DNA from: Candidatus Pacearchaeota archaeon
GTDB taxonomy: Archaea > Nanobdellota > Nanobdellia > Pacearchaeales > GW2011-AR1
Reading direction: 5' to 3'
Assembly (NCBI GenBank): GCA_041651235.1
Contig: JBAZJQ010000001.1
Span: 558,449-622,448, forward strand
Length of the DNA: 64,000 nt
Shown here: piece after piece, positions 3,196 to 59,215 of the stretch
How the letters are laid out: every line of letters starts with the position of its first letter
Numbering within the stretch: position 1 is the stretch's first letter
Notes under the pieces: generated by a model
What the model was told of the DNA's origin: nothing
The model's input: only the letters and a program-made list of their open reading frames with translations
Database searches by the model: none
Translations under genes and position numbers: made by a program

Positions 3196-3366
3196 ATTTT
3201 TTTGTTGTTTTACTATTTTATTTATAATATACTAAACTGATGATATGTTTTATTGTGATTGTGCAGCTTCTTATAATTATAGTTTTTTATTTATATTTAG
3301 GAGTTTATTTATTTGCTTAAATGTTTTTCCAAAAACATTTAAAAACCATGTTTTCTTTTATATGAT

Positions 3367-4143
3367 ATGGGATTTGGTGATATCTTTTCAAAATCATGGG
3401 GTGAATATAAAAATAAATTTTGGGTTTTTACTCAGATATTCTTGTTATTTGGATTTCTTCCATCAATAATTTTATTTTTAGCTAATAAATCTTATTTAGA
3501 AAATTTTAATAATTTAATTGTTTCTGCAATCCAAAATAATTCTGGAGTGTTTAATAGCATAATCTCTTATATTTTTGTTGATAATCTAAGTTATACTTTG
3601 TTCCTGGCATTTTTAGGAATTTTAGTTTTTGCATTAGGAATATTAATGGGAGCTAGTTTTATTGTTAATGCTTTTTCAGGAAAAAAACTTGGATTTAAAG
3701 AATCTCTTAAAGGAGGAAAAAAATATTTTTGGAAATATTTTTGGTTTTCAGTTGTTTATAGTATATTTATTATATTATTATTTTTGTTATTAGTTGTTCC
3801 GGGTATAATTTTCATGATTTACTGGATTTTTGGAGCTTATATCTTAATTAATGAAAATAAAGGAATTTTAGCTTCATTAAAAGAAAGTAGAAAATTAATA
3901 AAAGGAAAATGGTGGAAGACATTTGGTTATTTTATCTTATTTAGTTTAATAATAATTGTTATTTCATGGATAGCTTCTCTTATTGGTTTTGGTTTAGAAA
4001 AAACTTTTTTATGGATATTGGGAAAACCTTTATGTTTTGAAGGATTTACTAATAGTATTTTTGTACAGCTAGCAAGTGTTGTAATTGCTCCTTTAAGTGT
4101 ATTATTTTTTAAGAATTTTTATTTAAGTATGAAAAAGAGATAA
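3367..4143 (+). CDS. polytopic membrane protein, unknown function
   Basis: 258 aa with about six hydrophobic helices. Confidence 0.55.
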   Translation: MGFGDIFSKSWGEYKNKFWVFTQIFLLFGFLPSIILFLANKSYLENFNNLIVSAIQNNSGVFNSIISYIFVDNLSYTLFLAFLGILVFALGILMGASFIVNAFSGKKLGFKESLKGGKKYFWKYFWFSVVYSIFIILLFLLLVVPGIIFMIYWIFGAYILINENKGILASLKESRKLIKGKWWKTFGYFILFSLIIIVISWIASLIGFGLEKTFLWILGKPLCFEGFTNSIFVQLASVVIAPLSVLFFKNFYLSMKKR

Positions 4144-4155
4144 TTCTGAAGAAAA

Positions 4156-4512
4156 TTATCCTGTGGGTTTTTCTCTTGATTTTATAAGATGTGTAAAAAA
4201 CAAATTTAAGGAGTTATTATCATCACTTTTCCTTTTTAGATGATATTTGCATCCACCATAATCAAATGAAACATCTCCTTCTTTATTACTTTTAATATTA
4301 TTTGAACTATTGGGTAATTTGAATTCATTTTGATATTCCCTTTCATTTATTTCTAAATAAAGAGGATTTAAGCAAAATTCATCTTTATCATTTCCAGGAC
4401 GTATACTAAAACAAATATTTCCATAAGGATTTTCTGGTAGTTGTTCAACTGCCCCTACTATTTCTTCTAAATAGATTCCAGGGCAGTTAAAAATAACTTT
4501 ATTTTTATCCAT
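4156..4512 (-). CDS. hypothetical protein (orphan), third gene of an SD-led minus-strand cluster
   Basis: 118-aa ORF; GGGAGG 13 nt upstream of the ATG, inside the end of the upstream gene. Confidence 0.45.
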   Translation of the reverse strand: MDKNKVIFNCPGIYLEEIVGAVEQLPENPYGNICFSIRPGNDKDEFCLNPLYLEINEREYQNEFKLPNSSNNIKSNKEGDVSFDYGGCKYHLKRKSDDNNSLNLFFTHLIKSREKPTG

Positions 4513-4520
4513 TTTGTTTC

Positions 4521-5084
4521 TTATTGCAAACCTCCCGCTTTATACATTCTTTTCATAGCTTTTTTCCAAAATTCATTTGTTTCATTACATTGTCTATTAA
4601 AGATATTAGCTGTCCAATTTTCTCCATCATCAATTAATTCCTTTGCTCTTCCATAAAGAAGTTTAGCATCCTCGTAATCATGATTAAGTTCAGCTAATTT
4701 TCCCCCATATAAGCAGGCATCGATGTAATTAAGAATAAAGTCATAATTTCCTGTCCAATTTTCTCCATAACCTTCATGGCATTTAAAGTTACAATCATTA
4801 AAATGAGTTACTTGCTTTGTTAATTTTTTAATTTCTCTAATTGCTTTTCGAGACTTTCCAGATGCAGCAAGTCTGCATAATCTTGCAAGACCGCCTTCTA
4901 ACCCATAAATAACTGAATTTTCTAATTGCTCTTTAATCGTTTTTTCAAAACCCAATATTGCTTTTTCTCCTTTACCATAACTAGGGTTATTCAAATCAGT
5001 TTTTAATCCGATTATATCTCTATAATCTATTCTCTTGCTTTTCTTAAATATCGATAGTATATTGTATTTCATTTTATTCATCAC
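4521..5084 (-). CDS. hypothetical protein (orphan) with conserved leader
   Basis: 187-aa ORF preceded by GAAAGGAGGTGATGAATAAAATG. True start is probably ATG 5081 or 5072, not GTG 5084. Confidence 0.5.
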   Translation of the reverse strand: MMNKMKYNILSIFKKSKRIDYRDIIGLKTDLNNPSYGKGEKAILGFEKTIKEQLENSVIYGLEGGLARLCRLAASGKSRKAIREIKKLTKQVTHFNDCNFKCHEGYGENWTGNYDFILNYIDACLYGGKLAELNHDYEDAKLLYGRAKELIDDGENWTANIFNRQCNETNEFWKKAMKRMYKAGGLQ

Positions 5085-5149
5085 CTCCTTTCAGAGGTTT
5101 TGTTTCAATTTTGTTTTTTGTTTGTGTTTTCATTTTGTTTGTTTTTATG
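5085..5149 (-). promoter_or_regulatory. conserved A/C-rich leader + strong SD, copy 1
   Basis: Minus-strand reading: AAACAAACAAAATGAAAACACAAACAAAAAACAAAATTGAAAC...GAAAGGAGGTG. Core shared with copies at 5714..5820 and 25960..26085. Confidence 0.55.
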
Positions 5150-5200
5150 ATGTATATTTATCTTCATATAATTAAAAAATTTAAAATAAAATTTGTATTA

Positions 5201-5713
5201 TTATCTCTGGACAGTATATTTTATCTTAGATATATGGTACCAATCCCCATAGCCTTCAAGCTTGCCATCTCTTTCTTCCGCATCCTGTATACCCAGAGTA
5301 ATATAATGTTTTTCTTGCTTGGTTCTAGCGTTTACAACTACCTTTTCATGTGCCACAAAAGCTGAATCCTTCCTCTTAAATTCATCGCATTTCCATACAG
5401 GATATTCATGATTCACAAACTGGGAAGCCTTAAATAAATCCCCTTTGCAGTAATAATCAGTAAGAGCTTCCTTGTTACAATAAAGTTTATCAAAATGTCC
5501 CCGAATAGTAACAGGAATTTCTTCCGGATCCCCCCAGGGCACACGATAAAACTTACCCAAATACTTAACAATAGATTTCTTATTATCTTTTTCATTAGAA
5601 GCTTGCCAGTAAGCATAAAGATTATCTGCTAAGTTCTCCGCGTTAATTGGTTCATCAAGAACAACACGCTTTCCAGTTAGTCTTTCTTTTAATGTCGCCA
5701 CCATTTTATTCAT
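5201..5713 (-). CDS. hypothetical protein (orphan) with conserved leader
   Basis: 170-aa ORF preceded by TTGAAAGGAGGTAATGAATAAAATG; visibly higher G+C than its neighbours. Confidence 0.5.
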   Translation of the reverse strand: MNKMVATLKERLTGKRVVLDEPINAENLADNLYAYWQASNEKDNKKSIVKYLGKFYRVPWGDPEEIPVTIRGHFDKLYCNKEALTDYYCKGDLFKASQFVNHEYPVWKCDEFKRKDSAFVAHEKVVVNARTKQEKHYITLGIQDAEERDGKLEGYGDWYHISKIKYTVQR

Positions 5714-5820
5714 TACCTCCTTTCAACTCTTTATTAAATTGAGTCTCAACTAAGCTTATTTTATTCTCATTTTTTTGTGTTATTTTATTTGTCATTTTGT
5801 TTTTTATTTGTATTTTATTA
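5714..5820 (-). promoter_or_regulatory. conserved A/C-rich leader + strong SD, copy 2
   Basis: Minus-strand reading: AAAAAACAAAATGACAAATAAAATAACACAAAAAAATG...TTTAATAAAGAGTTGAAAGGAGGTAATG. Confidence 0.5.
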
Positions 5821-5920
5821 TTTATTGTTATTATATAATGGTAACACTACTATATCAATGTTATTAGCTTAAAATTGTTCAAAACGCAAGATTTAAATAT
5901 ATTATTGCTTTTTAATTAAA

Positions 5921-6880
5921 ATGATTAGTTTAGATTTAAAAGATAGGAAGATATTATATGAATTAGATAAAGACTGCAGGCAGAGTTCTTCTGAGATAGG
6001 TAAAAAAATTAGATTAAATAAGAATACGATTAATTACAAAATTAAAAGAATGGAAGCTGAAGGGATAATCCAAGGATATTATGCGATAATTGATAGTTCA
6101 AAATTAGGATATTTTAGTTTTAGAGTTTATTTGAAATTTTTTAATACAACTAAAGAAAAAGAACAGGAAATAATAAAATGGTTAAAAGAAAATAAAAAAG
6201 TAGGTGTTGTTTCTAAATTTGATAGTATTTATGATTTGGGTTTTTTTGTATGGGTTAAAACTATTTATGAATTTGATGATTTTTGGGTAGAATTCAAGAA
6301 AAATTTCAGGGAATTTTTTTGGAATGAAAAAGTGCATGTTTTTTCAAAAGTCTATCATTTTAAAAGAAGATATTTATTAGAAGAAAAAAGACAATTAAGT
6401 GAAAAGTATGAAATAATTGGAAGTAATAAGATAGAAGATTATGATAATTTAGATCTAAAAATCCTGATGTTATTAGCTAAAAATTCTAAAATTCCATTAA
6501 TAGATTTAGCTAGTAAGCTTAAATCTCCTCCTAGAACTATTGCGTTTAGGATAAAAAGACTTGAGAAAAAAGAGATTATACAGGGGTATAGAGTAATTAT
6601 TAATATGGAGAAAATTGGCTATGAATATTATAAAATTGATTTTATATTAAATGAAATGCATGATTTTGAGAAATTAATTAATTATGCAAAAAATAATCCT
6701 AATATAATTTATATTGATAGGACTTTAGCTGAACTTGATTTTGAAATCGATGTTGAAGTTAAGAACAGACAAGAGCTGCAAAAATTAATAGAAAATATAA
6801 AAGTTAATTTTAGTATTCGCGATACAGAAGTATTTATTGTAAAAGAATATTATAAGCTTGAGACTTTGCCTCAGGTTTAA
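5921..6880 (+). CDS. tandem (double) Lrp/AsnC-family transcriptional regulator
   Basis: Two HTH_AsnC-like modules: LDLKDRKILYELDKDCRQSSSEIGKKIRLNKNTINYKIKRMEAEGIIQGY and LDLKILMLLAKNSKIPLIDLASKLKSPPRTIAFRIKRLEKKEIIQGY. Confidence 0.8.
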   Translation: MISLDLKDRKILYELDKDCRQSSSEIGKKIRLNKNTINYKIKRMEAEGIIQGYYAIIDSSKLGYFSFRVYLKFFNTTKEKEQEIIKWLKENKKVGVVSKFDSIYDLGFFVWVKTIYEFDDFWVEFKKNFREFFWNEKVHVFSKVYHFKRRYLLEEKRQLSEKYEIIGSNKIEDYDNLDLKILMLLAKNSKIPLIDLASKLKSPPRTIAFRIKRLEKKEIIQGYRVIINMEKIGYEYYKIDFILNEMHDFEKLINYAKNNPNIIYIDRTLAELDFEIDVEVKNRQELQKLIENIKVNFSIRDTEVFIVKEYYKLETLPQV

Positions 6881-6923
6881 AAAAGATAATTCTATATATT
6901 TGACTGCTTATTTATATGTATAT

Positions 6924-7016
6924 TGATAATGTATAAACTCATATCTTATGCAGATGAGATGATTAAAATTTCGATAAACAGATTACTTATTGTTTGTCTT
7001 AAGAAGATAAGATATT
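6924..7016 (+). repeat. intergenic modular repeat, locus 1 (degenerate A + B + C)
   Basis: TGATAATGTATAAACTCAT ... TGCAGATGAGATGATTAAAATTTCGAT ... ACAGATTACTTATTGTTTGTCTTAAGAAGATAAGATAT. Confidence 0.7.
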
Positions 7017-7037
7017 ATGAATTAAATAGCCTTAAAA

Positions 7038-7145
7038 ATGAACAAACAAAAATTAATTGAAAGCTTGAAAGAAAAAGGATTTAATGAGAAAATTATAACT
7101 GCATTTTTAGTGTTAAAAGAGAGGATTTTGTTTTTGTTCATTTAG
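7038..7145 (+). pseudogene. possible remnant of a protein-L-isoaspartate O-methyltransferase N-terminus
   Basis: 35-codon ORF MNKQKLIESLKEKGFNEKIITAFLVLKERILFLFI resembles Pcm N-termini (..L.E.L...G.I....V..AF..VPRE.F) but stops before the methyltransferase fold. Confidence 0.3.
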
Positions 7146-7465: not shown

Positions 7466-9829
7466 TTAAAATTCCCCTAATTTCATTTGCTTTTTGCCTT
7501 CTATTAATTGATTAATATCTACATTGAAAACTTCAAAGATGTTTTCAACTGCTGGAAGAATCTGATTGTTTAAATAATAATTAATATCATATTTTCCTGA
7601 TTCATCAATCATCTTAGCTCTGTCTCTTACAAGTGCTTTTTTATTATCTGATTCTGCAATATAATATTGAATTAACATGCCTAAATTAATTGGAATATTT
7701 TTTGCAATCATTTTTCTTGCAATTGCAATATGAGGAGTATTTGCTTTGTATTCATCAATTGATTTTTTTAGCTGAGTTCTTATTACTAATTCAGATAATT
7801 CAATTTTTCTTTCTTTAATTTTCTTAATTGTTTCTTTAATATATTCCAGTGCTTTTTTTTCATTTCCATCTGTAAGAATTAATTTTAGTATTTTGCTTTG
7901 AACTTCTCTTGCTAAATTACACCAGTCTCTTCTTACTGTTTCAAATCCTCTTATTTTTAGTTTATTATCTTCTGTAATAAGTGCATATTTCTTTTTTGCT
8001 CCAAATTCCCCTGTTCTTTTTGTTACCCAGATTCCTCTTTTATAGAAATCTTCCAGTTCCAGCTCCATTATTCCTGGAAGATGTTCATTAATTTGTTTTA
8101 ATAAATCAAGAGCTTGTTTTTTTGATTTGTTATCCAGACTTACTGCAATACTATCGGTATCACTATAAATTGGCTGAAAATTTGATTGTTCAAATTTTTT
8201 AATTGCTGATTTTATGTTTTCTCTTGCAAAATAAGCTGTTGATGCAGCTGCTTCTAAACAATAATATCTTGCTCCGAAAAATCCTTGATAACCATAAGCT
8301 GCATTTGCTATTAGCTTAAATGCATTGCTTCTTGCTTTTAAAATTGGATTGGGATTTTTATTATATTCTTTTTTAAATTCTCTTCTTTTTTCAATAATCT
8401 GCTTTAGAAGTTCAGGAAAAAATCCTGGTTTTTTTGAAAAATAAACTTTTTTATTATTTATTTCTGAAATTATATTTGTTTTTTCTTTGGATAGAGTTGA
8501 TAGACTGAGATTATAAGACACAATAACACTTGCATACATACTTGAGAAATCAAACATAGCAATATCATTGTATAATCCTGGTTTGGGCTGGAAAACAAAA
8601 GCTCCTTCATATTTTTCTCTTTCAATTCTATTTGAAATTTCTTCATGACTTGCTTTGTGCTTTGCTATTTCATTGAATTTATGGAGATTATGAAGAATAT
8701 AGTTTTCAACATTTTGAGACATTGAATCTCTAGATACATCATAAGGAGGTTCTTGAAGAACTCTTGAAAATTCTAAAATATCTGGCCAAACCTTTTCAAA
8801 TAATTTATATGTTAAAACTGAATCTTGAAGATTATATTCAAAAAAATCTTCCCAATGCTTTTGTGTATGTTCTGTTTTATTCATATCAATATGAGAAATA
8901 TCATTCTTTTTTTCTCCAATAAGTTCATTTGCAACTTCATTTAAAGAAAGAGTTTCTGACTGGAGATACTGGCTGTATGCTACTTGTATAAATCTAAATA
9001 AATCTACATGAGTTATTCCTTTTATTTTTCCTGATAAAACTCTTCCTCTGGAAAAAATAGGAGCAGAATTATCTAATCCTAGTGATAATTTTACTTTGTT
9101 ATGCTCTGCTCTTGCTCTTAAATAAGGCAAATCAAAACCATCTGAAAAATAACCTACTAAAAAATCTGGGGAATATTCTTTTATATATTTTACAAAAGCT
9201 TCTAGCATTTCTGCTTCATCTTTAAAATATTCAACAAAGGATTTTTTTGATTGTTTTTTCCAGGTAAGAACTTTTTTGAAATTATTACCTACTAATGAAA
9301 TCATTAAGATTTCTCCTTTTCCTATTTCAAATTCATTTGTTTCAATATCATAAGCTAGAAATTTCGGATGAAATTGAATATCTGATTGTGATTGTGTTAT
9401 TTTCTCTGCTTTAATTACAAAATCTACTTCTAAATTAGAACATTCATTATTTGATGCAAGTTCTCCTTCAATTTCCCATAACGTTAAAGGTGTTAGCTTA
9501 TTTTCAATTAAGAATTTAGTTATTATATTGATATCATTTTCATAAACTTCAAACTTTTCTGCAATTTCTTTTGTTTGTTTTGATGAGGAGGTATAAACTT
9601 TTAGTGCTTTAACTGGTTTTCCTAAGAAATTTTTGGATTCTTCTTGTATCTTGATTGTATCTAGTTTTTTCTTTGCCTTTTCTATATCTTTAATTATATA
9701 GCACCAGTCATTAAATTGCTTTAAGATACATAATCTCTTGCCTTTCTCATTTCTCCCATATACTTGAATATAGGTTTGATTATTTAGTTCAAAGGATTCA
9801 AAATTAATAGGGATAAATGTGAATTTCAT
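7466..9829 (-). CDS. polB: family-B DNA polymerase
   Basis: Exo I YDIETN, Exo II YNLQDS, Pol A DFSSMYASVIVSYNLS, Pol B KLIANAAYGY, Pol C YSDTDSI; 787 aa, no intein. Confidence 0.95.
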   Translation of the reverse strand: MKFTFIPINFESFELNNQTYIQVYGRNEKGKRLCILKQFNDWCYIIKDIEKAKKKLDTIKIQEESKNFLGKPVKALKVYTSSSKQTKEIAEKFEVYENDINIITKFLIENKLTPLTLWEIEGELASNNECSNLEVDFVIKAEKITQSQSDIQFHPKFLAYDIETNEFEIGKGEILMISLVGNNFKKVLTWKKQSKKSFVEYFKDEAEMLEAFVKYIKEYSPDFLVGYFSDGFDLPYLRARAEHNKVKLSLGLDNSAPIFSRGRVLSGKIKGITHVDLFRFIQVAYSQYLQSETLSLNEVANELIGEKKNDISHIDMNKTEHTQKHWEDFFEYNLQDSVLTYKLFEKVWPDILEFSRVLQEPPYDVSRDSMSQNVENYILHNLHKFNEIAKHKASHEEISNRIEREKYEGAFVFQPKPGLYNDIAMFDFSSMYASVIVSYNLSLSTLSKEKTNIISEINNKKVYFSKKPGFFPELLKQIIEKRREFKKEYNKNPNPILKARSNAFKLIANAAYGYQGFFGARYYCLEAAASTAYFARENIKSAIKKFEQSNFQPIYSDTDSIAVSLDNKSKKQALDLLKQINEHLPGIMELELEDFYKRGIWVTKRTGEFGAKKKYALITEDNKLKIRGFETVRRDWCNLAREVQSKILKLILTDGNEKKALEYIKETIKKIKERKIELSELVIRTQLKKSIDEYKANTPHIAIARKMIAKNIPINLGMLIQYYIAESDNKKALVRDRAKMIDESGKYDINYYLNNQILPAVENIFEVFNVDINQLIEGKKQMKLGEF

Positions 9830-21958: not shown

Positions 21959-23154
21959 TTTATCTCTGATAATAATTCCTGCTTTTTCTCTTTTAAATAT
22001 TCCTGTTCTTTATCATCTAGATCTAATGACTCATAATCTTTTTGAGAGAATATTAAAGGGAACAAAAAGCTTTCTTTCATCGCTTTCTTCTTAGATATAT
22101 GATTAAATTGAGCATATTTTGATACTATTGATTTCTTTTTTGCATTTTTCTGGTTTGAGAGCCAAATTTTTAGTATTCTTGAAGGTCTTTTATATCCTGT
22201 GAATTTTTTGTATTTAATTTTAGTTGCAGAAGATATTCCTGCTGATAAAAAGAAGTTCTCATAAACTAAAAATCTCCAGTATTGCTGTCTATATATTCTT
22301 CCTTTAAATAAATCTGCTTTGCTTAAACTATCATAAGCTTTTGCTAATGCCTGCCCTTGATATTCCATAGGAATATTTTCTTCTACCCATAGAATTATCT
22401 CATCTAGTTCCATCTGAGTTTCATCTAATATAGAAAGTGTTTTTTTGTTTGGAGATTCTTGGAATATTTTTTTTAATGCATTGAAAATGCTTTCTTCTTT
22501 TTCTCTTTCACTTATTTCTTCAATAAATGCATCTTCACCAAGGGAAAGAACTGATTGCAAGTCATTTAATGCTGCTCTTATATCCCCTCTTGATTTACTT
22601 GAGATTAAATTTAATGTTTCTGGCTTCAAAGTCCTATTTTCTTTTTGAAGAACTGCATGAAGAATATCTAATACAATCTCTTGTTTTAGCTCTTTTAAGC
22701 TAACTAGCTGGCATTTTTTTCTTAGTAGACTGAATTTTTGCTGCCAAATATCATTTGCAGTTATAATAATTGGGTGGGGTGTTTTGTCAATTAGCGCGAT
22801 TAATTCTGGAAGTCCTCCTCTGTCCGAGGCTGTTATTCCATCTGCTTCATCCATTAAAATTAGCTTTCCTTTTTTAAATAAAGATTGCTGTTTTATTGCA
22901 GGAGATAAAACTTCTTCTAATTTTGAACGATTTCTCAAATCACTTGCATTTAGTTCAAATAATTCTAAATTTAATTCATTTGCAAGTGCAATTGCAATTG
23001 ATGTTTTTCCTGTTCCAACAGGACCGCTTAGTATTAAGGCTCTTTTTAATGGAAATTTTTTGAAAAATATTTGAACTTCCTGGATAACTGAGTCTTGTCC
23101 CTTTATTTCTGAGAATTTTTTTACACGATATTTTTCAATTAATGGAAGAGTCAT
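21955..23154 (-). CDS. rfcL: replication factor C large subunit
   Basis: Walker A LSGPVGTGKTS, Walker B LILMDEADGI; overlaps rfcS by 4 nt. Confidence 0.85.
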   Translation of the reverse strand: MTLPLIEKYRVKKFSEIKGQDSVIQEVQIFFKKFPLKRALILSGPVGTGKTSIAIALANELNLELFELNASDLRNRSKLEEVLSPAIKQQSLFKKGKLILMDEADGITASDRGGLPELIALIDKTPHPIIITANDIWQQKFSLLRKKCQLVSLKELKQEIVLDILHAVLQKENRTLKPETLNLISSKSRGDIRAALNDLQSVLSLGEDAFIEEISEREKEESIFNALKKIFQESPNKKTLSILDETQMELDEIILWVEENIPMEYQGQALAKAYDSLSKADLFKGRIYRQQYWRFLVYENFFLSAGISSATKIKYKKFTGYKRPSRILKIWLSNQKNAKKKSIVSKYAQFNHISKKKAMKESFLFPLIFSQKDYESLDLDDKEQEYLKEKKQELLSEIK

Positions 23155-24125
23155 TTTATAATGCCTTTGCCAGCAAGAACAAATCCTGCTAAAAGAGCTT
23201 CTAATTGAATAAATTCATCACTGCCTTCAACTAATCTAAATTCAACTTCCCCTGTTTTCTCTGTTAACCGAACTTTAAGCTCATCATCAATCTGAAGATT
23301 CCATATTTCTTTTTGAATTGATTTTATAATATCTGTTCCTGAAACAGATTCTTTAAGCATAACCTCTAATAATTTTTCTTTTGATTTAATAAAATCTCCT
23401 GAAAGAGCATATTCTAGAACAATTTTAATGTCTGCTGGTTTTGCACTTGAAGCTAAGGTATTAATTAAATCAGGGGTTATTGAAGGAGAAATTGATGCAG
23501 ATGCTTGCAATAAGTTAATAACTCTTCTGCAGTCTCCTTCTGAAGCTTCATATAATGATTCTATTGTTACATCTGAAATTTGAAGTTTTTCTTTTTCTGC
23601 AATTAATCTTATTCTTTTTTCTATATCTTTTTTTTCTAATAGTTTAAATCTAAAAATAGCACATCTTGACTGAATAGGGTCTATTATTTTTGAAGAGTAG
23701 TTGCAGGACATAATAAATCTGCAGGTTGAAGTGTAGTTTTCCATTGTTCTTCTTAAAGCCTGTTGAGCTTCTCTTGTTAATGCATCTGCTTCATCTAAAA
23801 AAATAACTTTAAAAGGGACATTTCCAATTGCTTTTGTTCTTGCAAAATCCTTTACTTTTTGCCTTACAACATCAATTCCTCTTTCATCAGAAGCATTTAA
23901 TTCTAAGTAATTTTCTTTCCAATTAATCCCAAATAATTCCCTTACAATTATTAGAGCTAGTGTTGATTTTCCTGTTCCAGCAGGACCTGCAAATAGTAAA
24001 TGAGGTATATTAAGAGATTTAGTTAGATTTTTTGTCTTTTTTATTATTTCATCCTGCCCTACAACTTCTTCAAATTTTTTAGGTCTATATTTTTCAGTCC
24101 AAATAGCAGTATTGTTATTATCCAT
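23151..24125 (-). CDS. rfcS: replication factor C small subunit
   Basis: WTEKYRPKKF, FAGPAGTGKST, VIFLDEADALT, SRC motif PIQSRCAIFRF. Confidence 0.95.
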   Translation of the reverse strand: MDNNNTAIWTEKYRPKKFEEVVGQDEIIKKTKNLTKSLNIPHLLFAGPAGTGKSTLALIIVRELFGINWKENYLELNASDERGIDVVRQKVKDFARTKAIGNVPFKVIFLDEADALTREAQQALRRTMENYTSTCRFIMSCNYSSKIIDPIQSRCAIFRFKLLEKKDIEKRIRLIAEKEKLQISDVTIESLYEASEGDCRRVINLLQASASISPSITPDLINTLASSAKPADIKIVLEYALSGDFIKSKEKLLEVMLKESVSGTDIIKSIQKEIWNLQIDDELKVRLTEKTGEVEFRLVEGSDEFIQLEALLAGFVLAGKGIIK

Positions 24126-24613: not shown

Positions 24614-24724
24614 TTATTCTCCTCTTCTTTGCTTTCTTTTCTTCTTTACACGTCTAAGTCTTTTTCTCTGCCATTTCCATCTCATTTGGTTTTTCTTTTT
24701 CCAACGTCTTGAGCTTCTTTTCAT
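24614..24724 (-). CDS. very basic 36-aa peptide, probable ribosomal protein L41e
   Basis: Below the ORF-track cutoff. MKRSSRRWKKKNQMRWKWQRKRLRRVKKKRKQRRGE resembles the K/R-rich L41e pattern (..RWKKKRMRRLKRKRRK..). Confidence 0.45.
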   Translation of the reverse strand: MKRSSRRWKKKNQMRWKWQRKRLRRVKKKRKQRRGE

Positions 24725-24800
24725 AGAATTTAATTGAAATTTTGGTTTATAAATCTTTAGATTGAAAGTTTTTTAAAGGTATTATACTAGGATATTTTGA

Positions 24801-24873
24801 AGCCCTGTAGTCTAGCGGTCAAGGATCCGGCCCTCTGGAGGCTGGGACCCAGGTTCGAATCCTGGCGGGGCTA
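24801..24873 (+). tRNA. tRNA-Gln (anticodon CUG)
   Basis: Hand-folded cloverleaf: acceptor AGCCCTG/CGGGGCT, anticodon stem CGGCC/GGCTG, loop CTCTGGA, T arm CCAGG-TTCGAAT-CCTGG; no encoded CCA. Confidence 0.9.
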
Positions 24874-24874
24874 T

Positions 24875-25861
24875 TTAGTTATAATTATTCTTGAATAAAT
24901 TACCAAATCCTGGAGTCCACTCATCAGTTATCATTAAAACTGAATCTACTGTCCTTATTACTTCAGGAAATTCTTTTTTTAAATTTTCTATGATTTTGTA
25001 ATATTCTTGATAATTGTTTACAATTAATTCGGGTTCTATCTGAGATAGGTTTCTAATAAAGTATTGAACATTCGGCAGAGATGAAATATAACTTAAAAGT
25101 CTTTTTTCATCTTCTTTTGTGTATTTTTCTAATTTTATTATAGCTTTATATAACTCTAACCCTAACTTGTTAAGATCAACCCCGATTCTATATTGAGTTA
25201 TTACTTCCTTTTCTTTTAATTTTTTTAGTCTATTTTTGATAATAATTTCTGTAGACCTAATTCTTTTAGCCAGTTCTGTCAGAGAAATTCTTCCGTTATT
25301 TACTATTTGAGCAAGAATAGCATAATCTTTCTGGTCAAGATCATTATTTACAACTTCGCCAGCAAACATTGTAGGCTGGGTTATTTCATTTGTAAAATAC
25401 ATTTTTGAATATTGCTTAACATCAACAAGAATGCCATCTTCTTGATCAACGATTATTTTATTAAATTGAGACATAAAGTCATTTTTTATTTCATAAAATT
25501 CATAATCTGTTTTTGCAAAAATGGAGATTATTAAATCCCAGCTCCCAGAACATTCTCCCATCCAATAAACTCTCCCTAATGAACGCAAATATTTAAACAA
25601 CTTATCTTTTTCTAAGGGGATATTCTTTAGTTTGACATAAATTTTATAGGCTTTAAATCCCATTTTATTAGGATTAATTGCTGTTTGAAATCCAGTGATT
25701 ATCCCTCTTTTGATTAATTGATTAATTCTATATTCAACTGCTTGGCGAGATTTTCTAATTTTCTTAGCTAAAATTGTTGAAGGAACCCTACAATTTTTAT
25801 CTAGTTCTGCAAGAAGTTTTTTATCGGCCTTGTCTAATAAAAGCTTGTTTATTTCAACCAT
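24875..25861 (-). CDS. tandem (double) Lrp/AsnC-family transcriptional regulator, paralog of 5921..6880
   Basis: Trimmed to ATG 25861. LDKADKKLLAELDKNCRVPSTILAKKIRKSRQAVEYRINQLIKRGIITGF and LDQKDYAILAQIVNNGRISLTELAKRIRSTEIIIKNRLKKLKEKEVITQY. Confidence 0.8.
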   Translation of the reverse strand: MVEINKLLLDKADKKLLAELDKNCRVPSTILAKKIRKSRQAVEYRINQLIKRGIITGFQTAINPNKMGFKAYKIYVKLKNIPLEKDKLFKYLRSLGRVYWMGECSGSWDLIISIFAKTDYEFYEIKNDFMSQFNKIIVDQEDGILVDVKQYSKMYFTNEITQPTMFAGEVVNNDLDQKDYAILAQIVNNGRISLTELAKRIRSTEIIIKNRLKKLKEKEVITQYRIGVDLNKLGLELYKAIIKLEKYTKEDEKRLLSYISSLPNVQYFIRNLSQIEPELIVNNYQEYYKIIENLKKEFPEVIRTVDSVLMITDEWTPGFGNLFKNNYN

Positions 25862-25959
25862 ATTTAGCATAAGAGATATATAGTTTATAAATATTATCAT
25901 TTATGCTTAAATATTAAAAGAAAGTTTAATATGCTTTATAATCTTGTGATGAATAACTA

Positions 25960-26085
25960 AACAGCAGAAATAAACAAACAAAATGAAAAACAAAAAACAA
26001 CATAAGATTTGCATAAGAAATTCAAGTGCAGAACTTGAACTAGGTTATACTTTAATAAACAAATTGAAAGGGGGTAAACAACAAA
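25960..26085 (+). promoter_or_regulatory. conserved A/C-rich leader + SD, copy 3
   Basis: AAATAAACAAACAAAATGAAAAACAAAAAACAACATAAG ... TTTAATAAACAAATTGAAAGGGGGTAAACAACAAAATG. Confidence 0.5.
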
Positions 26086-26883
26086 ATGGCTAAAAGGATA
26101 GTAACAAATAAACGATTTGATGCTTATTTGGATAAATTGTGTAACAAAATAAACACTGCAAGTAGGATTCATGGAAATATAAATCAATTAAATAAACAAT
26201 CGAATCTTGAAAATAGAATAGGTATTTTAAACGGCAAAATAGCAGAGAGAGTAGCTTCTGAATGTAAAGAAGAACCAGTTTGCGAAAGTCTTCCTTACGT
26301 AATATTATGGGGCTATCGGGATTTATTAAAAGAAAAACAGTGTCCTGAAATTGATTTTTATTCTAGAATGCAAGGTATTTTAGATTATGCCCAAAATAAA
26401 ATAAAGATTGCACAAGAAAAGTCAGGAGAAAATATTGATGTAGAACATAAGCTTTACGAAAAGAATCAAAATTTTGGACTTAGTGATTTGGATATACAAG
26501 AATTAACTAGGATTGAAGATGAACATCGTGAATGTTCCAATGCAGTGAATAATTATATAATTGTTGGAAACCAATTACTAGGACATCAAATAATCCATAG
26601 TTTTCATCAATTAGCTGAAAGCAAAGAAAAACCAATTGCTAGATTTTATGAAAGAAGATTGACAGAAAAAGAATATAATTTATTTATAAATTCTTCATAT
26701 GAAGAAATAATGGATTATCTTTTGATTGAGTGGGAGATGAAAGATTTTGATGAAGATAGGAGGAAATATCATTCTTTTGGTGTATATAATTGGACTGAGA
26801 TGCCTAAGGAGAATTCTATGTTCAGTATTCAGAAGAAAATCGCTAAATGGAATAAAAAAGAAACTTCTGAAGAAGAATTTTAA
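26086..26883 (+). CDS. hypothetical protein (orphan) with conserved leader
   Basis: 265-aa ORF, no motif; divergent from the tandem-Lrp gene. Confidence 0.5.
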   Translation: MAKRIVTNKRFDAYLDKLCNKINTASRIHGNINQLNKQSNLENRIGILNGKIAERVASECKEEPVCESLPYVILWGYRDLLKEKQCPEIDFYSRMQGILDYAQNKIKIAQEKSGENIDVEHKLYEKNQNFGLSDLDIQELTRIEDEHRECSNAVNNYIIVGNQLLGHQIIHSFHQLAESKEKPIARFYERRLTEKEYNLFINSSYEEIMDYLLIEWEMKDFDEDRRKYHSFGVYNWTEMPKENSMFSIQKKIAKWNKKETSEEEF

Positions 26884-26942
26884 TTTTTTTCTATTTTTTA
26901 TTATTTCAAAAACTTTAAATATTAGTTAAACTTATATATTTC

Positions 26943-27194
26943 ATGGAAGGTAAGCTAATTGGAGAGGTAAGTAATTTCTTTGAACACGTTAGTGTTGCTG
27001 CTATAAAGCTAACTGGAAATGTAAAATTAGGAGCTACAATAAGAATTGTTGGGGGAGATAAGGATTTTACAGAAATTGTTGATAGCATGCAATTACAGCA
27101 TAAAAATGTCACTTCTGCAAAAAAAGGTGATGAAATTGGAATTAGAATAAGTGATAAAGCAAGAAAAGGATATAAGGTTTATTTAGTTAAGTGA
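26943..27194 (+). CDS. small beta-barrel protein resembling EF-Tu/IF2 domain II
   Basis: 83 aa; VAAIKLTGNVKLGATIRIVG...VTSAKKGDEIGIRI pattern. Confidence 0.4.
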   Translation: MEGKLIGEVSNFFEHVSVAAIKLTGNVKLGATIRIVGGDKDFTEIVDSMQLQHKNVTSAKKGDEIGIRISDKARKGYKVYLVK

Positions 27195-27209
27195 TTCTGT
27201 TGGATTGGG

Positions 27210-27259
27210 ATAGTCTATTAAGATAAATGCGTTGTTTGATATGATAAGATGTTAATGAG
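27210..27259 (+). repeat. intergenic modular repeat, locus 7 (A + B-like)
   Basis: ATAGTCTATTAAGATAA ATGCGTTGTTTGATATGATAAGATGTTAATGAG; begins 16 nt after the stop. Confidence 0.6.
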
Positions 27260-27359
27260 ATAATTAAATATGAATTTCTGATGATTGAGTTTATCTGCTG
27301 ATTTTTATTGTTCTTCGAATAATAAACATTTAAAAAGAATCCGAAAGTTAACTAATTAT

Positions 27360-27432
27360 GCCCCTTTCATCTAGAGGCCAAGGATCCAGCCTTCTCAAGG
27401 CTGTAACCCGGGTTCAAATCCCGGAGGGGGCA
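27360..27432 (+). tRNA. tRNA-Glu (anticodon CUC)
   Basis: Acceptor GCCCCTT/AGGGGGC, anticodon stem CAGCC/GGCTG, loop TTCTCAA, T arm CCGGG-TTCAAAT-CCCGG. Confidence 0.9.
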
Positions 27433-27473
27433 TAATTCAAAATACTTATAAATAAAGTTTTTGTATAATATGT

Positions 27474-28016
27474 ATGAAAGAGGTAAGATTAATTCGAAAA
27501 GAGGATCTGAAAGCAAAAGAAAATATAATTCTTGATTTAGATTCTTATGGAGATATATTCTCTGATTTTGATTTAAGGGATTATAGTGTTAAGGCGTTAT
27601 CTGATGATTTTTTATCTGAATGCAAAAAAGCTTCTTTAGATAAAGAAGATAATGTAAAACTTATTTTAGTTCTAGGAAAATCAAAAAGAAATGTTAAAGA
27701 AGAAATTAAAATTAAAAAAAGACTTAAAGAACATTTTATTAAGCATTTTCATAAAAACAAAAAGGAAATAAATCGAGTAAGGAATCAAGGGTTTATTTGG
27801 TTTTTAATAGGGACTATGCTTATGTTTGTTGCAACTTTTGTATATGAAAAAACTGGATTTTTCTTTAAATTAATTGAAGTAATGTCTGAACCTGCTGCCT
27901 GGTTTATGTTTTGGGAAGGATTAGACAAAGTGTTTATTTATTCAAGAGATAAAAAGCCTAATTTTGAATTTTATAAAAAAATGGCTCACTCAAGTATAAT
28001 TTTTGCAAGTCATTAA
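27474..28016 (+). CDS. hypothetical membrane protein
   Basis: 180 aa, two TM helices in the C-terminal half. Confidence 0.45.
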   Translation: MKEVRLIRKEDLKAKENIILDLDSYGDIFSDFDLRDYSVKALSDDFLSECKKASLDKEDNVKLILVLGKSKRNVKEEIKIKKRLKEHFIKHFHKNKKEINRVRNQGFIWFLIGTMLMFVATFVYEKTGFFFKLIEVMSEPAAWFMFWEGLDKVFIYSRDKKPNFEFYKKMAHSSIIFASH

Positions 28017-28195: not shown

Positions 28196-29311
28196 ATGCA
28201 CTATCATTTAATTTTAACTGAATTATGCAATTCTAACTGCAAGTATTGCTATGAAAAATCAATGAGGGAAGCAGAATTAGGGATTAAATCAAATTTTGAA
28301 TTTGAAATGAACCCTGCTGTTTCCGAAGTTGATATAAATAAATTAAAGGAATTTTTGGAGAGAGATAAGAACCCTGTTTTGATTTTTTATGGAGGAGAGC
28401 CTTTGTTAGAGATAGAAAAAATAAAAAAGATTATTGATAATGGAAACATTAAGAATCTTAAATTTAGAATGCAGACAAATGGAAAACTTCTTGATAAAAT
28501 TCCTACTGAATATTTGAATAAAATAGATAAGATTTTAATTTCAATTGATGGAAATAAAAAAAGAACTGACTTTAACAGGGGAGATGGAACTTATGATAAA
28601 TTAGTTGAAAATATAAATTTGATTAGAAGAAATGGATATAAAGGTGAAATTGTTGCTAGAATGACAATAGGTTTTTCAGATATTTATGAACAGGTTTTGC
28701 ATCTTATTGATTTAACTAAAGAGCGGTTGTTTGATTCTATACATTGGCAGTTAGATGCTGGTTTTTACAGCCATGATTTTAATGAAAAAGAGTTTTCTAG
28801 ATTTGTTGAAGAATATAATTCGGGGGTTAAAAATTTAGTTGATTTTTGGATTGAGGAGATGTATTGTGGAAATGTTTTGAAATTATATCCTTTTATGGGG
28901 ATTATGGAAAGTATTTTGAATAATGAAAAAACTTTGCTTAGATGTGGGGGAGGACATTCTGGTTTTGCAATAACAACGAATGGAATGATAAGCGCATGCC
29001 CTATTATGAATTCAATAAAAGATTTTTATGTAGGAGATATAAACTGCAATGTGGATAAATTAAAAAAAATAGAAATTTCTGAATGCAATAGTTGTAATTA
29101 TCTTAATTTATGCGGGGGAAGATGCTTGTATTGGAGAAAAGCAAAATTATGGCCTGAAAAAGGAGATGAAATGATTTGCAATACAATTAAATTTTTAATT
29201 AATTTATTAAAAGAAAAGGAAAATGAAATAAAACAATTAATTGATAAGAAAATTATAAAAAAAAGTGATTTTTTTTATGAAAAATATTTTGGGCCTGAAA
29301 TAATTCCCTAA
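28196..29311 (+). CDS. radical SAM / SPASM-domain protein (peptide- or protein-modifying type)
   Basis: CNSNCKYCY (CX3CX2C) at the N-terminus. C-terminal Cys clusters CGGGHSGFAITTNGMISACP and CNSCNYLNLCGGRC. Confidence 0.85.
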   Translation: MHYHLILTELCNSNCKYCYEKSMREAELGIKSNFEFEMNPAVSEVDINKLKEFLERDKNPVLIFYGGEPLLEIEKIKKIIDNGNIKNLKFRMQTNGKLLDKIPTEYLNKIDKILISIDGNKKRTDFNRGDGTYDKLVENINLIRRNGYKGEIVARMTIGFSDIYEQVLHLIDLTKERLFDSIHWQLDAGFYSHDFNEKEFSRFVEEYNSGVKNLVDFWIEEMYCGNVLKLYPFMGIMESILNNEKTLLRCGGGHSGFAITTNGMISACPIMNSIKDFYVGDINCNVDKLKKIEISECNSCNYLNLCGGRCLYWRKAKLWPEKGDEMICNTIKFLINLLKEKENEIKQLIDKKIIKKSDFFYEKYFGPEIIP

Positions 29312-34985: not shown

Positions 34986-35135
34986 ATGCAAAAAAAGGTG
35001 ACTCTTAGCTTAGATTCTGAAACATATCAAAAATTCCAGGAATTTTGTGAAGAAAATGATATTATGCTTTCTAAAAGAATTGAGAGATTAATTAACAAAC
35101 ATTTAGAAGAAAATAAAAAAGGAGGAAAAAAATGA
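34986..35135 (+). CDS. ribbon-helix-helix (CopG-like) small protein
   Basis: Below the ORF-track cutoff. MQKKVTLSLDSETYQKFQEFCEENDIMLSKRIERLINKHLEE has an RHH pattern (beta strand VTLSLD plus two helices). Its stop overlaps the next start (ATGA). Confidence 0.5.
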   Translation: MQKKVTLSLDSETYQKFQEFCEENDIMLSKRIERLINKHLEENKKGGKK

Positions 35136-59113: not shown

Positions 59114-59215
59114 AAATGGAGGAATATCTCAAATAATAATATTTATAAAGTGAAAAATCCTCGATATATTGATTAGATTTGTCTAATTAAAAAATATATG
59201 AAAGGAGGTATGAAA

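Follow-up and report, generated by a model that had tools for sequence, protein, structure and literature searches.

A tandem Lrp/AsnC regulator and a conserved bidirectional control region beside a variable divergent gene in a Pacearchaeota genome: a candidate local switch

DPANN-type archaea have few transcription factors and their gene regulation is almost uncharted; our literature searches on tandem or fused Lrp proteins and on DPANN regulation found nothing specific. The closest described systems are the archaeal Lrp/AsnC (FFRP) regulators (P. furiosus LrpA, Sulfolobus Ss-LrpB, LysM and BarR, M. jannaschii Ptr2), which have a wHTH and a RAM fold in common with the protein described here. 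Most archaeal Lrp proteins autoregulate, through sites at their own TATA box or start, and adjoin their targets, often divergently and with one control region for both, while the documented activators (Ptr2, LysM, Ss-LrpB) bind just upstream of the BRE/TATA (PMC2995911). The locus that we analysed lies in a 64,000-nucleotide stretch of Candidatus Pacearchaeota DNA (the window, meaning the whole stretch) and resembles these systems, but differs in that two complete units are fused in one chain (fusions go unmentioned in the 2010 family review, PMC2995911), that the candidate operator has two arms of 9 bp each, with their centres 33 bp apart, in place of one 13-15-bp box, and that the controlled gene, here called the cargo, varies by genome where theirs is a fixed metabolic operon. 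NirDL/AhbAB is the only solved tandem Lrp-fold chain and also has radical SAM partners, yet it is an enzyme and not DNA-binding, whereas the window protein keeps canonical wHTH motifs and a conserved candidate operator. BrxR/CapW-type WYL regulators (PMC9122601) likewise bring a conserved ligand-sensing regulator and its operator beside many unrelated gene sets, although they are WYL rather than Lrp proteins from another domain of life, and their neighbours are phage-defence systems, whereas the cargo here has no PADLOC match. The integron, too, has a fixed promoter (Pc) reading into exchangeable gene units; the likeness is one of analogy only, as no recombinase lies beside either of the two units in the window, and 24700-27500 has no attI/attC-like or boundary repeats. 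Finally, translational coupling and leader peptides (erm-type leaders, coupled operon junctions) resemble the locus in having a short ORF that ends at or overlaps the next start. To our knowledge, such uORF or leader-peptide devices are hardly documented in archaea.

An earlier note had described 24875-26883 as a divergent cassette, with a double-Lrp regulator and an unrelated cargo gene behind a leader; the regulator lies in a 341-codon ORF (24875-25900, minus strand). All sequence strings quoted in it are present where it placed them, and its double-Lrp reading holds, with two HTH matches and two wHTH+RAM units in the model. The regulator and its control region comprise the following features.

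24875..25861, minus strand: tandem Lrp/AsnC regulator, 328 aa plus stop (Pfam, orthologue alignment, AF2 model)
25866..25874, no strand: left candidate operator arm AGCATAAGA, with consensus AGCATAAAT, lying 4 nt before the start codon of the regulator; forms an inverted repeat with 25899-25907
25884..25893, minus strand: regulator TATA box TTTATAAATA, centre ~27 nt from the ATG, conserved in 59 loci, putative promoter
25899..25907, no strand: right candidate operator arm ATTTATGCT, conserved in 59 loci
25917..25933, plus strand: divergent cargo promoter, BRE/TATA AAAGAAAGTTTAATATG (consensus AGAAAgTTTAATATA), conserved in 59 loci
25955..25975, plus strand: start-site box AACTAAACAGCAGAAATAAAC, conserved, last part of the conserved module

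Alignment of 31-32 orthologues places the true start of the regulator at the third in-frame ATG of the ORF (25861, MVEINK...) and not at 25900, so that the palindrome lies upstream of the regulator gene rather than inside it. In Pfam, HTH_24 and an HTH_AsnC-type domain match twice (residues 22-69 and ~187-238 of the 341-aa ORF, E 8e-17 and 3e-15), the AsnC-type N-terminal wHTH being present with both motifs canonical, and NCBIfam and Pfam matches fall on both halves. The AF2 model (pLDDT 81.6) consists of two repeats of a 3-helix wHTH (bundles at 11-51 and 177-217) and a beta-alpha-beta-beta-alpha-beta RAM domain (70-153 and 236-310), the latter recognised in the model, by fold matches and by phmmer, while Pfam AsnC_trans_reg is absent in this regulator and weak (E 4e-4) in its paralogue at 5921-6880. 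Each half superposes on whole Lrp/FFRP chains in Foldseek (TM 0.7-0.77, identity 18-24%), and in phmmer residues 9-128 and 175-299 align to full Lrp chains. The PDB sequence matches are all single-unit chains of about 140-190 aa; where the usual protein is a single ~150-aa HTH+RAM unit, two such units are fused here in a 328-aa chain, which is thus an architectural variant of the Lrp/AsnC family. We infer that the chain folds as an intramolecular pseudo-dimer, and the architecture suggests an unusual single-chain version of the Lrp dimer. The regulator has >400 homologues (the best 120 at 65-82% identity), and both regulators of the window have hundreds of orthologues (~50-82% identity) in Nanoarchaeota, Woesearchaeota and Pacearchaeota MAGs; a contig scan with a single-protein query returned 3 loci only. 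PADLOC matches on the regulator (Csa3/CasR) are limited to the wHTH.

Given this fold, the protein could instead be a sirohaem decarboxylase of the NirDL/AhbAB type working with radical SAM partners, as in haem and haem d1 synthesis, an alternative that we regard as very improbable. Its best full-length structural match is indeed NirDL (4ch7/4czc; TM 0.62-0.66, E ~1e-13; for 4ch7 TM 0.63-0.66, E 9e-14), about 40% of related loci have a radical SAM/SPASM neighbour with weak best matches to NirJ1/NirJ2/AhbC/AhbD, and AhbAB is known as an Lrp-fold enzyme that acts with radical SAM partners (PMC4145669). The tandem or heterodimeric Lrp-like fold of AhbA/AhbB/NirDL is, however, a shared architecture that says nothing on activity, and identity to NirDL is only 14%, below that of each half to true Lrp regulators. 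The AhbA and AhbB equivalog models (NF040708, NF040707) have cut-offs of 140 and 125 bits but reach only 20-34 bits, whereas models of regulators reach 56-96 bits; the two wHTH motifs are canonical, and a conserved palindrome flanks the TATA box of the gene itself on both sides. In ~60% of loci, including the window, the neighbour is not a radical SAM protein, and where it is, the tetrapyrrole-enzyme matches of the relatives' proteins reach 22-37 bits against cut-offs of 500-650, so that no tetrapyrrole context emerges.

The control region is conserved together with the regulator across many Nanoarchaeota, Woesearchaeota and Pacearchaeota genomes. In 59 related loci, AGCATAAAT-N24-ATTTATGCT brackets the regulator TATA box and is followed by the divergent BRE/TATA and then by the start-site box, giving a bidirectional region of ~110 bp. 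Columns of the operator arms are 80-99% conserved, against ~40-60% in neighbouring columns. Conservation of the palindrome around the regulator TATA box in all these loci thus footprints it as a plausible operator, as the earlier note had proposed. The right arm is the sole exact ATTTATGCTYAA in the window, the start-site box has no other good copy there, and no further operator or start-site boxes beyond chance were found in the 64 kb. Judging from TATA spacing, cargo transcription probably starts near 25958. The regulator is probably expressed from a leaderless mRNA, as the same TATA-ATG spacing without a Shine-Dalgarno sequence (SD) is seen for most window genes. Together these elements would make up a concrete operator and promoter model for one of the best conserved DPANN-type regulators.

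What lies on the far side of this control region differs from genome to genome. At 67 of 72 loci an opposite-strand ORF of at least 50 codons starts 92-166 nt from the regulator start, and these divergent genes fall into 33 BLAST clusters and >25 unrelated families: 28 (~40% of loci) are uncharacterised radical SAM/SPASM proteins, five have a receiver domain and the rest are mostly without Pfam match, many being orphans. Cargo identity does not follow regulator phylogeny, as regulators are 71.4% identical in pairs with the same cargo and 69.1% in pairs with different cargo, and even regulators that are 94-96% identical can face different genes (L006/L007, L074/L076, L003/L026), the swapped segment being flanked by homologous sequence on both sides in the first two pairs. 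The radical SAM cargo family of the relatives has no tblastn match in the window; a nearby radical SAM gene at 28196-29311 belongs to a different family, TIGR04084. In the window the exchangeable part is as follows.

25973..~26940, plus strand: variable segment (leader, 265-aa gene and terminator), with two other genes in its place in the closest relative (L095)
25983..26093, plus strand: uORF A MKNKKQHKICIRNSSAELELGYTLINKLKGGKQQNG, 36 codons, AACAAAATG start context (predicted, read from sequence)
26021..26039, plus strand: 7-bp hairpin TTCAAGT-GCAGA-ACTTGAA, inside uORF A
26066..26075, plus strand: strong Shine-Dalgarno GAAAGGGGGT, 10 nt ahead of the start codon of the cargo
26086..26883, plus strand: 265-aa orphan cargo gene, predicted all-helical
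26884..26899, plus strand: T-tracts TTTTTTTCTATTTTTT directly after the cargo stop codon, likely an archaeal terminator

The blastn alignment with the closest relative covers 24883-25972 and resumes at 26979, running through an EF-Tu-D2-like gene to tRNA-Glu. As homology ends at 25972, just before the leader, the leader belongs to the variable unit. It could be argued that there is no special slot at all, the tandem Lrp being an essential, global or chromatin-like regulator, conserved with its promoter for its own role, whose neighbours differ through heavy rearrangement; no more than an ordinary Lrp gene under autoregulation would then be left. The very high conservation of the regulator across diverse MAGs would fit such a role, the loci also vary in the genes that lie downstream of the regulator, and synteny is poor on both its sides beyond the closest relative, the only one to have the EF-Tu-D2-like far flank in common, so that part of the cargo variation may be ordinary genome scrambling. 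Nevertheless, we find this explanation improbable, since conservation of the divergent promoter and start-site box equals that of the promoter of the regulator itself, nearly all loci have a divergent neighbour at a set distance, the operator is not repeated elsewhere in the 64 kb, and between regulators 91-96% identical (DNA or protein) replacement is confined to the segment from the cargo start site, with homology resuming beyond it. The target position is a gene-turnover hotspot, occupied mostly by orphans and uncharacterised radical SAM enzymes.

We lean towards reading the locus as a local autoregulated switch made of the tandem Lrp, its bidirectional control region and an interchangeable gene. 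Two regulator chains would bind the two operator arms and occlude TBP/TFB at the regulator's own TATA box, resulting in autorepression; bound just upstream of the cargo BRE/TATA, the regulator could also activate or repress the cargo promoter, and its response might be tuned by a small ligand on the RAM domains.

The cargo itself is almost without relatives. No PHROG, PADLOC or NCBIfam match was obtained for the 265-aa protein or for the 170-, 187- and 118-aa cargos elsewhere in the window, the 265-aa protein has no Pfam match, and the four have no BLASTP similarity to one another at E <= 1e-4, in line with the earlier statement that the 265-aa protein is unrelated to the other three. Its sole homologue among 1.84 billion representatives (P0122; 35% identity, E 3e-45) is also divergent to a tandem Lrp, of a third paralogue type. 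Modelled alone in AF2 the cargo reaches pLDDT 37, and a two-sequence cargo profile found nothing below E 0.4 among PDB sequences. We considered a viral or proviral origin, which is unsupported as no relatives were found among IMG/VR viral contigs (searched with the cargo and the regulator alignment) or GenBank phages (cargo), and also a known anti-phage defence role, for which PADLOC had no match on any of the four window cargos.

A second unit of the window, regarded in the earlier note as copy 1 of a cassette of which 24875-26883 would be copy 2, has these features.

5921..6880, plus strand: paralogous tandem Lrp regulator, copy 1 (Pfam, full-length alignment with copy 2)
5875..5899, minus strand: copy 1-specific control box TATTTAAATCTTGCGTTTTGAACAA, common to L089, L090, L092, L094 and L096, unique in the window
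5706..5795, minus strand: uORF B MTNKITQKNENKISLVETQFNKELKGGNE, 29 codons, its end 1 nt short of the second ATG in the 170-aa gene
5201..5713, minus strand: 170-aa cargo of copy 1, matches no known family
5083..5098, minus strand: hairpin ACCUCU-GAAA-GGAGGU, locks the SD of the 187-aa gene, inside uORF C
5074..5133, minus strand: uORF C MKTQTKNKIETKPLKGGDE, 19 codons, in the third leader
4156..5084, minus strand: 187-aa and 118-aa cargo genes, behind leader C

The idea that the two units are copies of one cassette does not survive closer comparison. Their regulators (24875-25900 ORF against the 5921-6880 protein) align over the full length at 31% identity (E 1e-42) and are ancient paralogues, each with its own orthologue group (for copy 1, 847 matches with E <= 1e-20, of which the 120 best are 47-70% identical) and its own conserved control region, of the ATTTATGCTCAA type at 24875-25861 and with TATTTAAATCTTGCGTTTTGAACAA at copy 1. 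Nor does the leader belong to a cassette with the regulator, given where homology to the closest relative stops and that leader C precedes the 187-aa gene without an adjoining regulator. In copy 1, two gene units follow one another, and a leader and a T-tract belong to each. The recurring arrangement is a fixed regulator and control region with a docked, variable leader-plus-gene unit.

The resemblance between leaders, by contrast, was borne out. Leader A (25901-26085) scores 47 against leader B (5714-5920, minus strand), compared with 26.6 +/- 4.1 in dinucleotide shuffles (reached by 1/1000), and 61 against leader C (5085-5200, minus strand; shuffles 26.5 +/- 4.4, reached by 0/1000), while B against C scores 46 (4/1000). 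The three are mutual best matches when set against 33 other real intergenic regions of the window, clearly so for A (50 and 45, next best 32) and C (53 and 46, next best 31), and with a small margin for B (47 and 42 against a next best of 41). In each, the frame of a short A/C-rich uORF of 19-36 codons extends across a strong SD and closes where the cargo begins; uORF A runs through its SD and its TAA overlaps the cargo start. Shuffles had an equally long open frame with P 0.016 for uORF A and 0.019 for uORF B. The case for the uORFs is modest, in that uORF C alone is not significant (0.17) and uORFs B and C may have arisen one from the other by duplication. As SDs are rare in the window (a handful of genes only) and the genome is mostly leaderless, a uORF running through a strong SD to the cargo start suggests translational coupling.

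Such similarity may also be convergent, which we consider unlikely: the leaders would then have in common only the elements required by every efficiently translated SD-led gene of this lineage (TATA box, AACAAAATG start context rich in A/C, AAGGAGGT, A-rich spacer), and the uORFs would be accidents or functionless relics of displaced gene starts. The AACAAAATGA(A/C)AA... context opens real cargo genes in L023/L024, L074, L011 and L080, and since such A/C-rich start contexts are common at the cargo starts of relatives (L023/L024, L074, L080), some of what the leaders have in common is a generic initiation signal; the uORF ATG sits where relatives have their cargo ATG, the SD junction has stops in all three frames, at which every frame coming from upstream terminates, and leader B scores 41 and 40 against unrelated intergenic regions, nearly its score against C (42). 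Convergence would not readily account for A and C aligning over 80 nt including the promoter, a similarity absent from all 1000 shuffles, for three leaders that are reciprocal best matches, or for open frames that are rarer in shuffles, and among 96 related loci the exact junction TGAAAGGRGGTRA hardly occurs, which makes it genome-specific rather than generic.

Under the coupling reading, the docked unit would begin with a short upstream cistron, the uORF, and translation of the cargo behind it would be coupled to that of this first cistron. Neither leader A nor leader B is significantly structured; leader A is overall not unusually structured (z -0.7), which leaves the hairpin at 26021-26039 of doubtful significance. 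The hairpin of leader C folds better than all 200 of its shuffles (RNAfold z -3.9) and, as in erm-type leaders, holds the SD within the uORF, so that a ribosome translating uORF C would open it; A and B differ from erm-type leaders in lacking an alternative-hairpin attenuator, and no stalling motif was identified. Rfam reported 4 tRNAs only and no leader family in the window at gathering thresholds, and nothing relevant in six related loci at E <= 1. Relatives have a small pseudoknot leader, defined from five sequences with pairs counted by eye (MAFFT mis-registered one), and neither a generic pseudoknot scan nor a targeted regex found a copy of it in the window. The uORF-plus-SD leaders described here and the pseudoknot leaders of relatives would be new candidates for archaeal post-transcriptional control.

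On a more speculative note, tandem-Lrp modules could be DPANN-type 'expression docks', at which lineage-specific accessory genes (radical SAM/SPASM enzymes, receiver proteins and orphans among them) are repeatedly swapped exactly at the transcription start and bring their own translational adaptors; we advance this tentatively, as possible but doubtful. Paralogous regulators, each with a fixed bidirectional control region, may then serve as regulated landing sites, and the adaptors may be an SD coupled to a uORF in this genome and, elsewhere, an anti-SD hairpin or a small H-type pseudoknot. Should the control region be a docking site in general, it would mark where flexible, probably host-interaction-related genes sit and how they are switched on; 'expression docks' would, if real, be a new organisation of the flexible gene pool in very small archaeal genomes and, for archaea, an uncommon instance of control by a leader peptide or a riboswitch-like element. 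Concerning the smaller cargos of copy 1, chance alone is unlikely to produce open frames of 118-187 codons at 28% GC, and the GC content of the 170-aa gene (36.6%) is above that of every other ORF examined.

Judging from its sequence, the locus at 24875-26883 contains a conserved tandem-Lrp regulator with a bidirectional control region, a module that each genome carries in several paralogous versions. This module would serve as a dock for exchangeable gene units, and three such units, with a common leader made up of a short upstream reading frame (uORF) and an SD, lie in the window. The architecture and the genomic arrangement are new, while the regulator family is well known.

The reading frame at 24875-25900(-) contains two AsnC-type winged-helix matches, and its product (regulator 2) aligns over its full length with the 319-aa protein at 5921-6880 (regulator 1; 31% identity, E 1e-42). 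Alignment with 31 orthologues places the start of regulator 2 at the third in-frame ATG, 25861 (MVEINK...). In an AlphaFold model computed from the orthologue alignment (mean pLDDT 81.6), a three-helix wHTH precedes a beta-alpha-beta-beta-alpha-beta RAM domain, the pair being present twice; each half resembles classical Lrp/FFRP regulators (TM 0.7-0.77), and the PDB chains matched by sequence are all single units of 141-190 aa. Regulator 2 thus appears to be a single-chain double Lrp, and the winged-helix matches and the doubled wHTH-RAM unit bear out the double-Lrp regulator of the earlier note. Fused double units find no mention in a review of the archaeal family (PMC2995911). The sole full-length fold match is NirDL, a tandem Lrp-fold enzyme (TM 0.63-0.66, 14% identity), and this match, together with radical SAM proteins found as neighbours in other genomes, prompted the reading of regulator 2 as an AhbAB/NirDL-type enzyme partnered with radical SAM proteins. 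However, the equivalog models for such enzymes fall far short and score lower than the regulator models, the protein has canonical wHTH motifs, and the gene's own TATA box is flanked by a conserved palindrome, all of which speaks for a regulator.

More than 400 homologues of regulator 2 were found (the best 120 at 65-82% identity), in MAGs labelled Nanoarchaeota, Woesearchaeota or Pacearchaeota. Regulator 1 belongs to a separate group (847 matches at E <= 1e-20, with identities of 47-70% among the best 120), and neither regulator was found on viral contigs. By these comparisons the two are conserved paralogues and not copies of a cassette. The earlier note had taken the present locus for a second cassette copy, and what stands of this is that three units share a uORF-plus-SD leader; the regulators are paralogues, and the leader lies outside the regulator module.

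We fetched 96 related loci in all, and 59 non-redundant loci of the regulator 2 type were used to build a consensus of the control region, in which about 110 bp upstream of the regulator start are strongly conserved. Its elements, reading outward from the start of the regulator gene, which is CAT on this strand, are:

Element 1: tTTAGCATAAAT
Element 2: a 24-nt stretch with TTTATAAAT inside
Element 3: ATTTATGCTCAA, then about 10 nt
Element 4: AGAAAgTTTAATATA, then about 20-30 nt
Element 5, the last outward: a ACTAAATAGTAGTAAC-like box

Given this conserved order, the near-palindrome is a pair of inverted arms of 9 bp each, at 25866-25874 and 25899-25907, with their centres 33 bp apart. They enclose a TATA box whose centre is about 27 nt from the regulator 2 ATG. 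The first genes of the window mostly have a TATA-like box about 26-27 nt before the ATG, without an SD, which indicates leaderless first-gene mRNAs; the mRNA of regulator 2 is therefore probably leaderless too, and a protein bound at the arms would hinder TBP/TFB or RNA polymerase at the regulator promoter. The conserved inverted arms around the TATA box in 59 loci strengthen the earlier suggestion of a plausible operator. A further conserved TATA, accompanied by a purine-rich BRE, faces the other way, toward the gene divergent to the regulator (the cargo), whose transcript would be expected to start at a conserved box about 25 nt beyond. Loci of the regulator 1 type have the same layout with another box, TATTTAAATCTTGCGTTTTGAACAA then GAAATATTAATATA. 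Neither operator nor the start-site box recurs across the 64-kb window, which argues for regulators that act locally; archaeal Lrp proteins typically regulate their own genes and lie divergently beside their targets (PMC2995911).

What lies on the other side of the control region varies. A divergent ORF of at least 50 codons starts 92-166 nt from the regulator start at 67 of 72 loci, and these ORFs sort into 33 BLAST clusters: radical SAM proteins of about 380-500 aa, often with a SPASM domain (28 loci; no NCBIfam cut-off reached), receiver-domain proteins (5 loci), a B12-radical SAM protein and a methyltransferase-like protein (one locus each), the remainder being without family. Cargo type does not track the regulator tree: regulator identity is 71.4% for same-cargo and 69.1% for different-cargo pairs, radical SAM neighbours are spread throughout the NJ tree, and the pairs L006/L007, L074/L076 and L003/L026 have unlike neighbours despite 94-96% regulator identity. 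In the first two pairs DNA homology spans the regulator and control region, ends near the cargo start and restarts further on, so that a segment has been swapped between homologous flanks; in L003/L026 it continues through the leader and then ends, the cargo beyond being unlike. Ordinary synteny decay around an essential regulator would agree with the poor synteny beyond the closest relative, but it leaves unexplained why the divergent promoter is conserved, why the neighbour keeps a divergent orientation and a fixed distance, and why replaced segments have homologous flanks. Some cargo sets come with very small ORFs: two of 46-50 aa, possible peptide substrates, beside two radical SAM genes (L001, 955-1255), and AbrB/SpoVT-like proteins of about 45 aa (…KHGSQ..I.IPK…; L007/L025, ~3240-3390, and L092, 2065-2202). 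L092 also has, beside a regulator of the first type, an eRF1 gene with Hint/intein matches and a Y1 (IS200-type) transposase (4461-5942 and 6687-7097).

The window is AT-rich (28% GC) and has archaeal gene content; it includes the following features:

7466-9829, family-B DNA polymerase
23151-24125, RFC small subunit
24801-24873, tRNA-Gln(CTG), 1 nt from the stop codon of regulator 2
26943-27194 (+), stand-alone 83-aa EF-Tu domain 2-like protein (Pfam E 1.5e-5, under cut-off)
27359-27433, tRNA-Glu(CTC), 475 nt past the 265-aa cargo
28196-29311 (+), radical SAM/SPASM protein, TIGR04084 (304 bits, cut-off 225)

Two tRNA genes thus bracket regulator 2, the slot and the EF-Tu-domain-2-like gene. 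In L095, the closest relative, whose regulator is 82% identical to regulator 2, the last of these has a counterpart (62% identity) at the same position, marking the far edge of the slot. Nucleotide homology with L095 covers 24883-25972 and resumes from 26979, in the EF-Tu-domain-2-like gene, to tRNA-Glu; between these flanks the window has the leader and the 265-aa gene, and L095 has genes for 132 and 109 aa. At copy 1, homology with L096 ends at 5832. Since homology with relatives stops just before the leader, the leader is part of the variable unit and not of the regulator module. The radical SAM protein at 28196-29311 has no BLAST kinship with the radical SAM family neighbouring the regulator in other genomes.

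The leader likeness between copies 2 and 1 (leaders A, 25901-26085(+), and B, 5714-5920(-)) had been noted before; the quoted strings were located, and the shuffle check proposed there confirms the likeness: the local intergenic alignment scores 47 against 26.6 +/- 4.1 for dinucleotide shuffles, 1 of 1000 reaching 47. A third leader, C (5085-5200(-)), absent from the earlier list, precedes the 187-aa gene and matches A even better (61 against 26.5 +/- 4.4; 0/1000). It has its own TATA-like box (5167-5186), is preceded by T-tracts closing the 170-aa unit, and adjoins no regulator. Under a stricter control, in which the window's 33 other actual intergenic regions were compared on either strand, the three leaders are reciprocal best matches, with clear margins for A (50/45, next best 32) and C (53/46, next best 31) and a thin one for the low-complexity B (47/42, next best 41). 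Convergent initiation signals in place of homology are part of the explanation, as an A/C-rich start and an SD are shared, but convergence accounts neither for the reciprocal-best relation, nor for the 80-nt A-C alignment, nor for a junction motif nearly absent from the 96 related loci. Leader A also holds a 33-nt direct repeat between the uORF and cargo start regions (25973-26005, AACAAACAAAATGAAA..., and 26054-26086, AATAAACAAATTGAAA...; 73% identity, 81 nt apart).

Each of the three leaders has an ATG within AACAAAATGA, a context that opens real cargo genes of relatives (e.g., L023/L024, L074, L080), and the uORF ATG sits where the cargo start codon of relatives does. The putative uORFs A/B/C stay open for 36/29/19 codons, abound in A/C-rich codons for Lys, Asn, Thr and Gln, traverse the SD (AAAGGAGGTGAT, AAAGGAGGTAAT, AAAGGGGGTAAA) as ...LKGG... 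and close with a TAA overlapping or directly adjoining the cargo start. When the upstream part is dinucleotide-shuffled, frames this long arise in 1.6%, 1.9% and 17% of cases (Fisher combination P ~0.003, with B and C possibly not independent). Clear SDs occur in the window only at these leaders, at internal operon genes (33173, 42520-, 4512-), at 35132 and at 50534-; outside the leaders SDs mark internal operon genes, first genes being leaderless. The simplest reading would be that the cargo is a second cistron after a short first one; the uORFs could equally be relics of the displaced genes' 5' ends. Elsewhere in the window, a listed ORF begins ATGAAAGGAGGTATG (59198-59212); its first ATG is probably within an SD (AAAGGAGGT), and the ATG at 59210 is probably its true start.

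In leader C the SD is paired in a hairpin, ACCUCU-GAAA-GGAGGU (z -3.9), and as this lies within uORF C, translation of the uORF would free the SD; leaders A and B have no significant structure (z -0.7, -1.9). In relatives, leaders of unrelated cargo genes at loci of both types (regulator 2 type: L019, L035, L043; regulator 1 type: L090/L091, L096) carry a ~28-nt motif, AAGCC-G-NGCG-GGCUU-AAAR-CGCN, after the conserved start-site box and before the SD. It is able to form an H-type pseudoknot, with both-sided changes in P1 (C-G to U-A in L096) and P2 (A-U/U-A; C-G/U-A in L043 and L096), has no Rfam match, is absent from the window, and could be a small riboswitch or protein-binding element. The cargo leaders of L003 (~3860-3930) and L026 (~3395-3450), both on the minus strand, form a hairpin AGCC...GGCU with a covarying anti-SD loop, complementary to the downstream SD (loop/SD CCUCU/AGGGG and UCUCU/AGAGG, respectively).

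The four window cargo proteins have no match in Pfam, PHROG, PADLOC or NCBIfam and are mutually unrelated by BLASTP, as had been observed for the 265-aa cargo against those of 170, 187 and 118 aa. The 170-aa cargo (5201-5713(-)) has a GC of 36.6%, higher than in any of the 37 other ORFs checked (mean 29.1 +/- 2.2, max 35.2), and this raised GC hints at a recent foreign origin. For the 265-aa cargo (26086-26883(+)) a single homologue was found among 1.84 billion representatives (35% identity, E 3e-45). The gene of this homologue, too, has a tandem Lrp on its divergent side. That Lrp represents a third paralogue type, sharing 45% identity with regulator 2 and 52% with the second regulator in L003, so one cargo family is docked to different paralogous modules.
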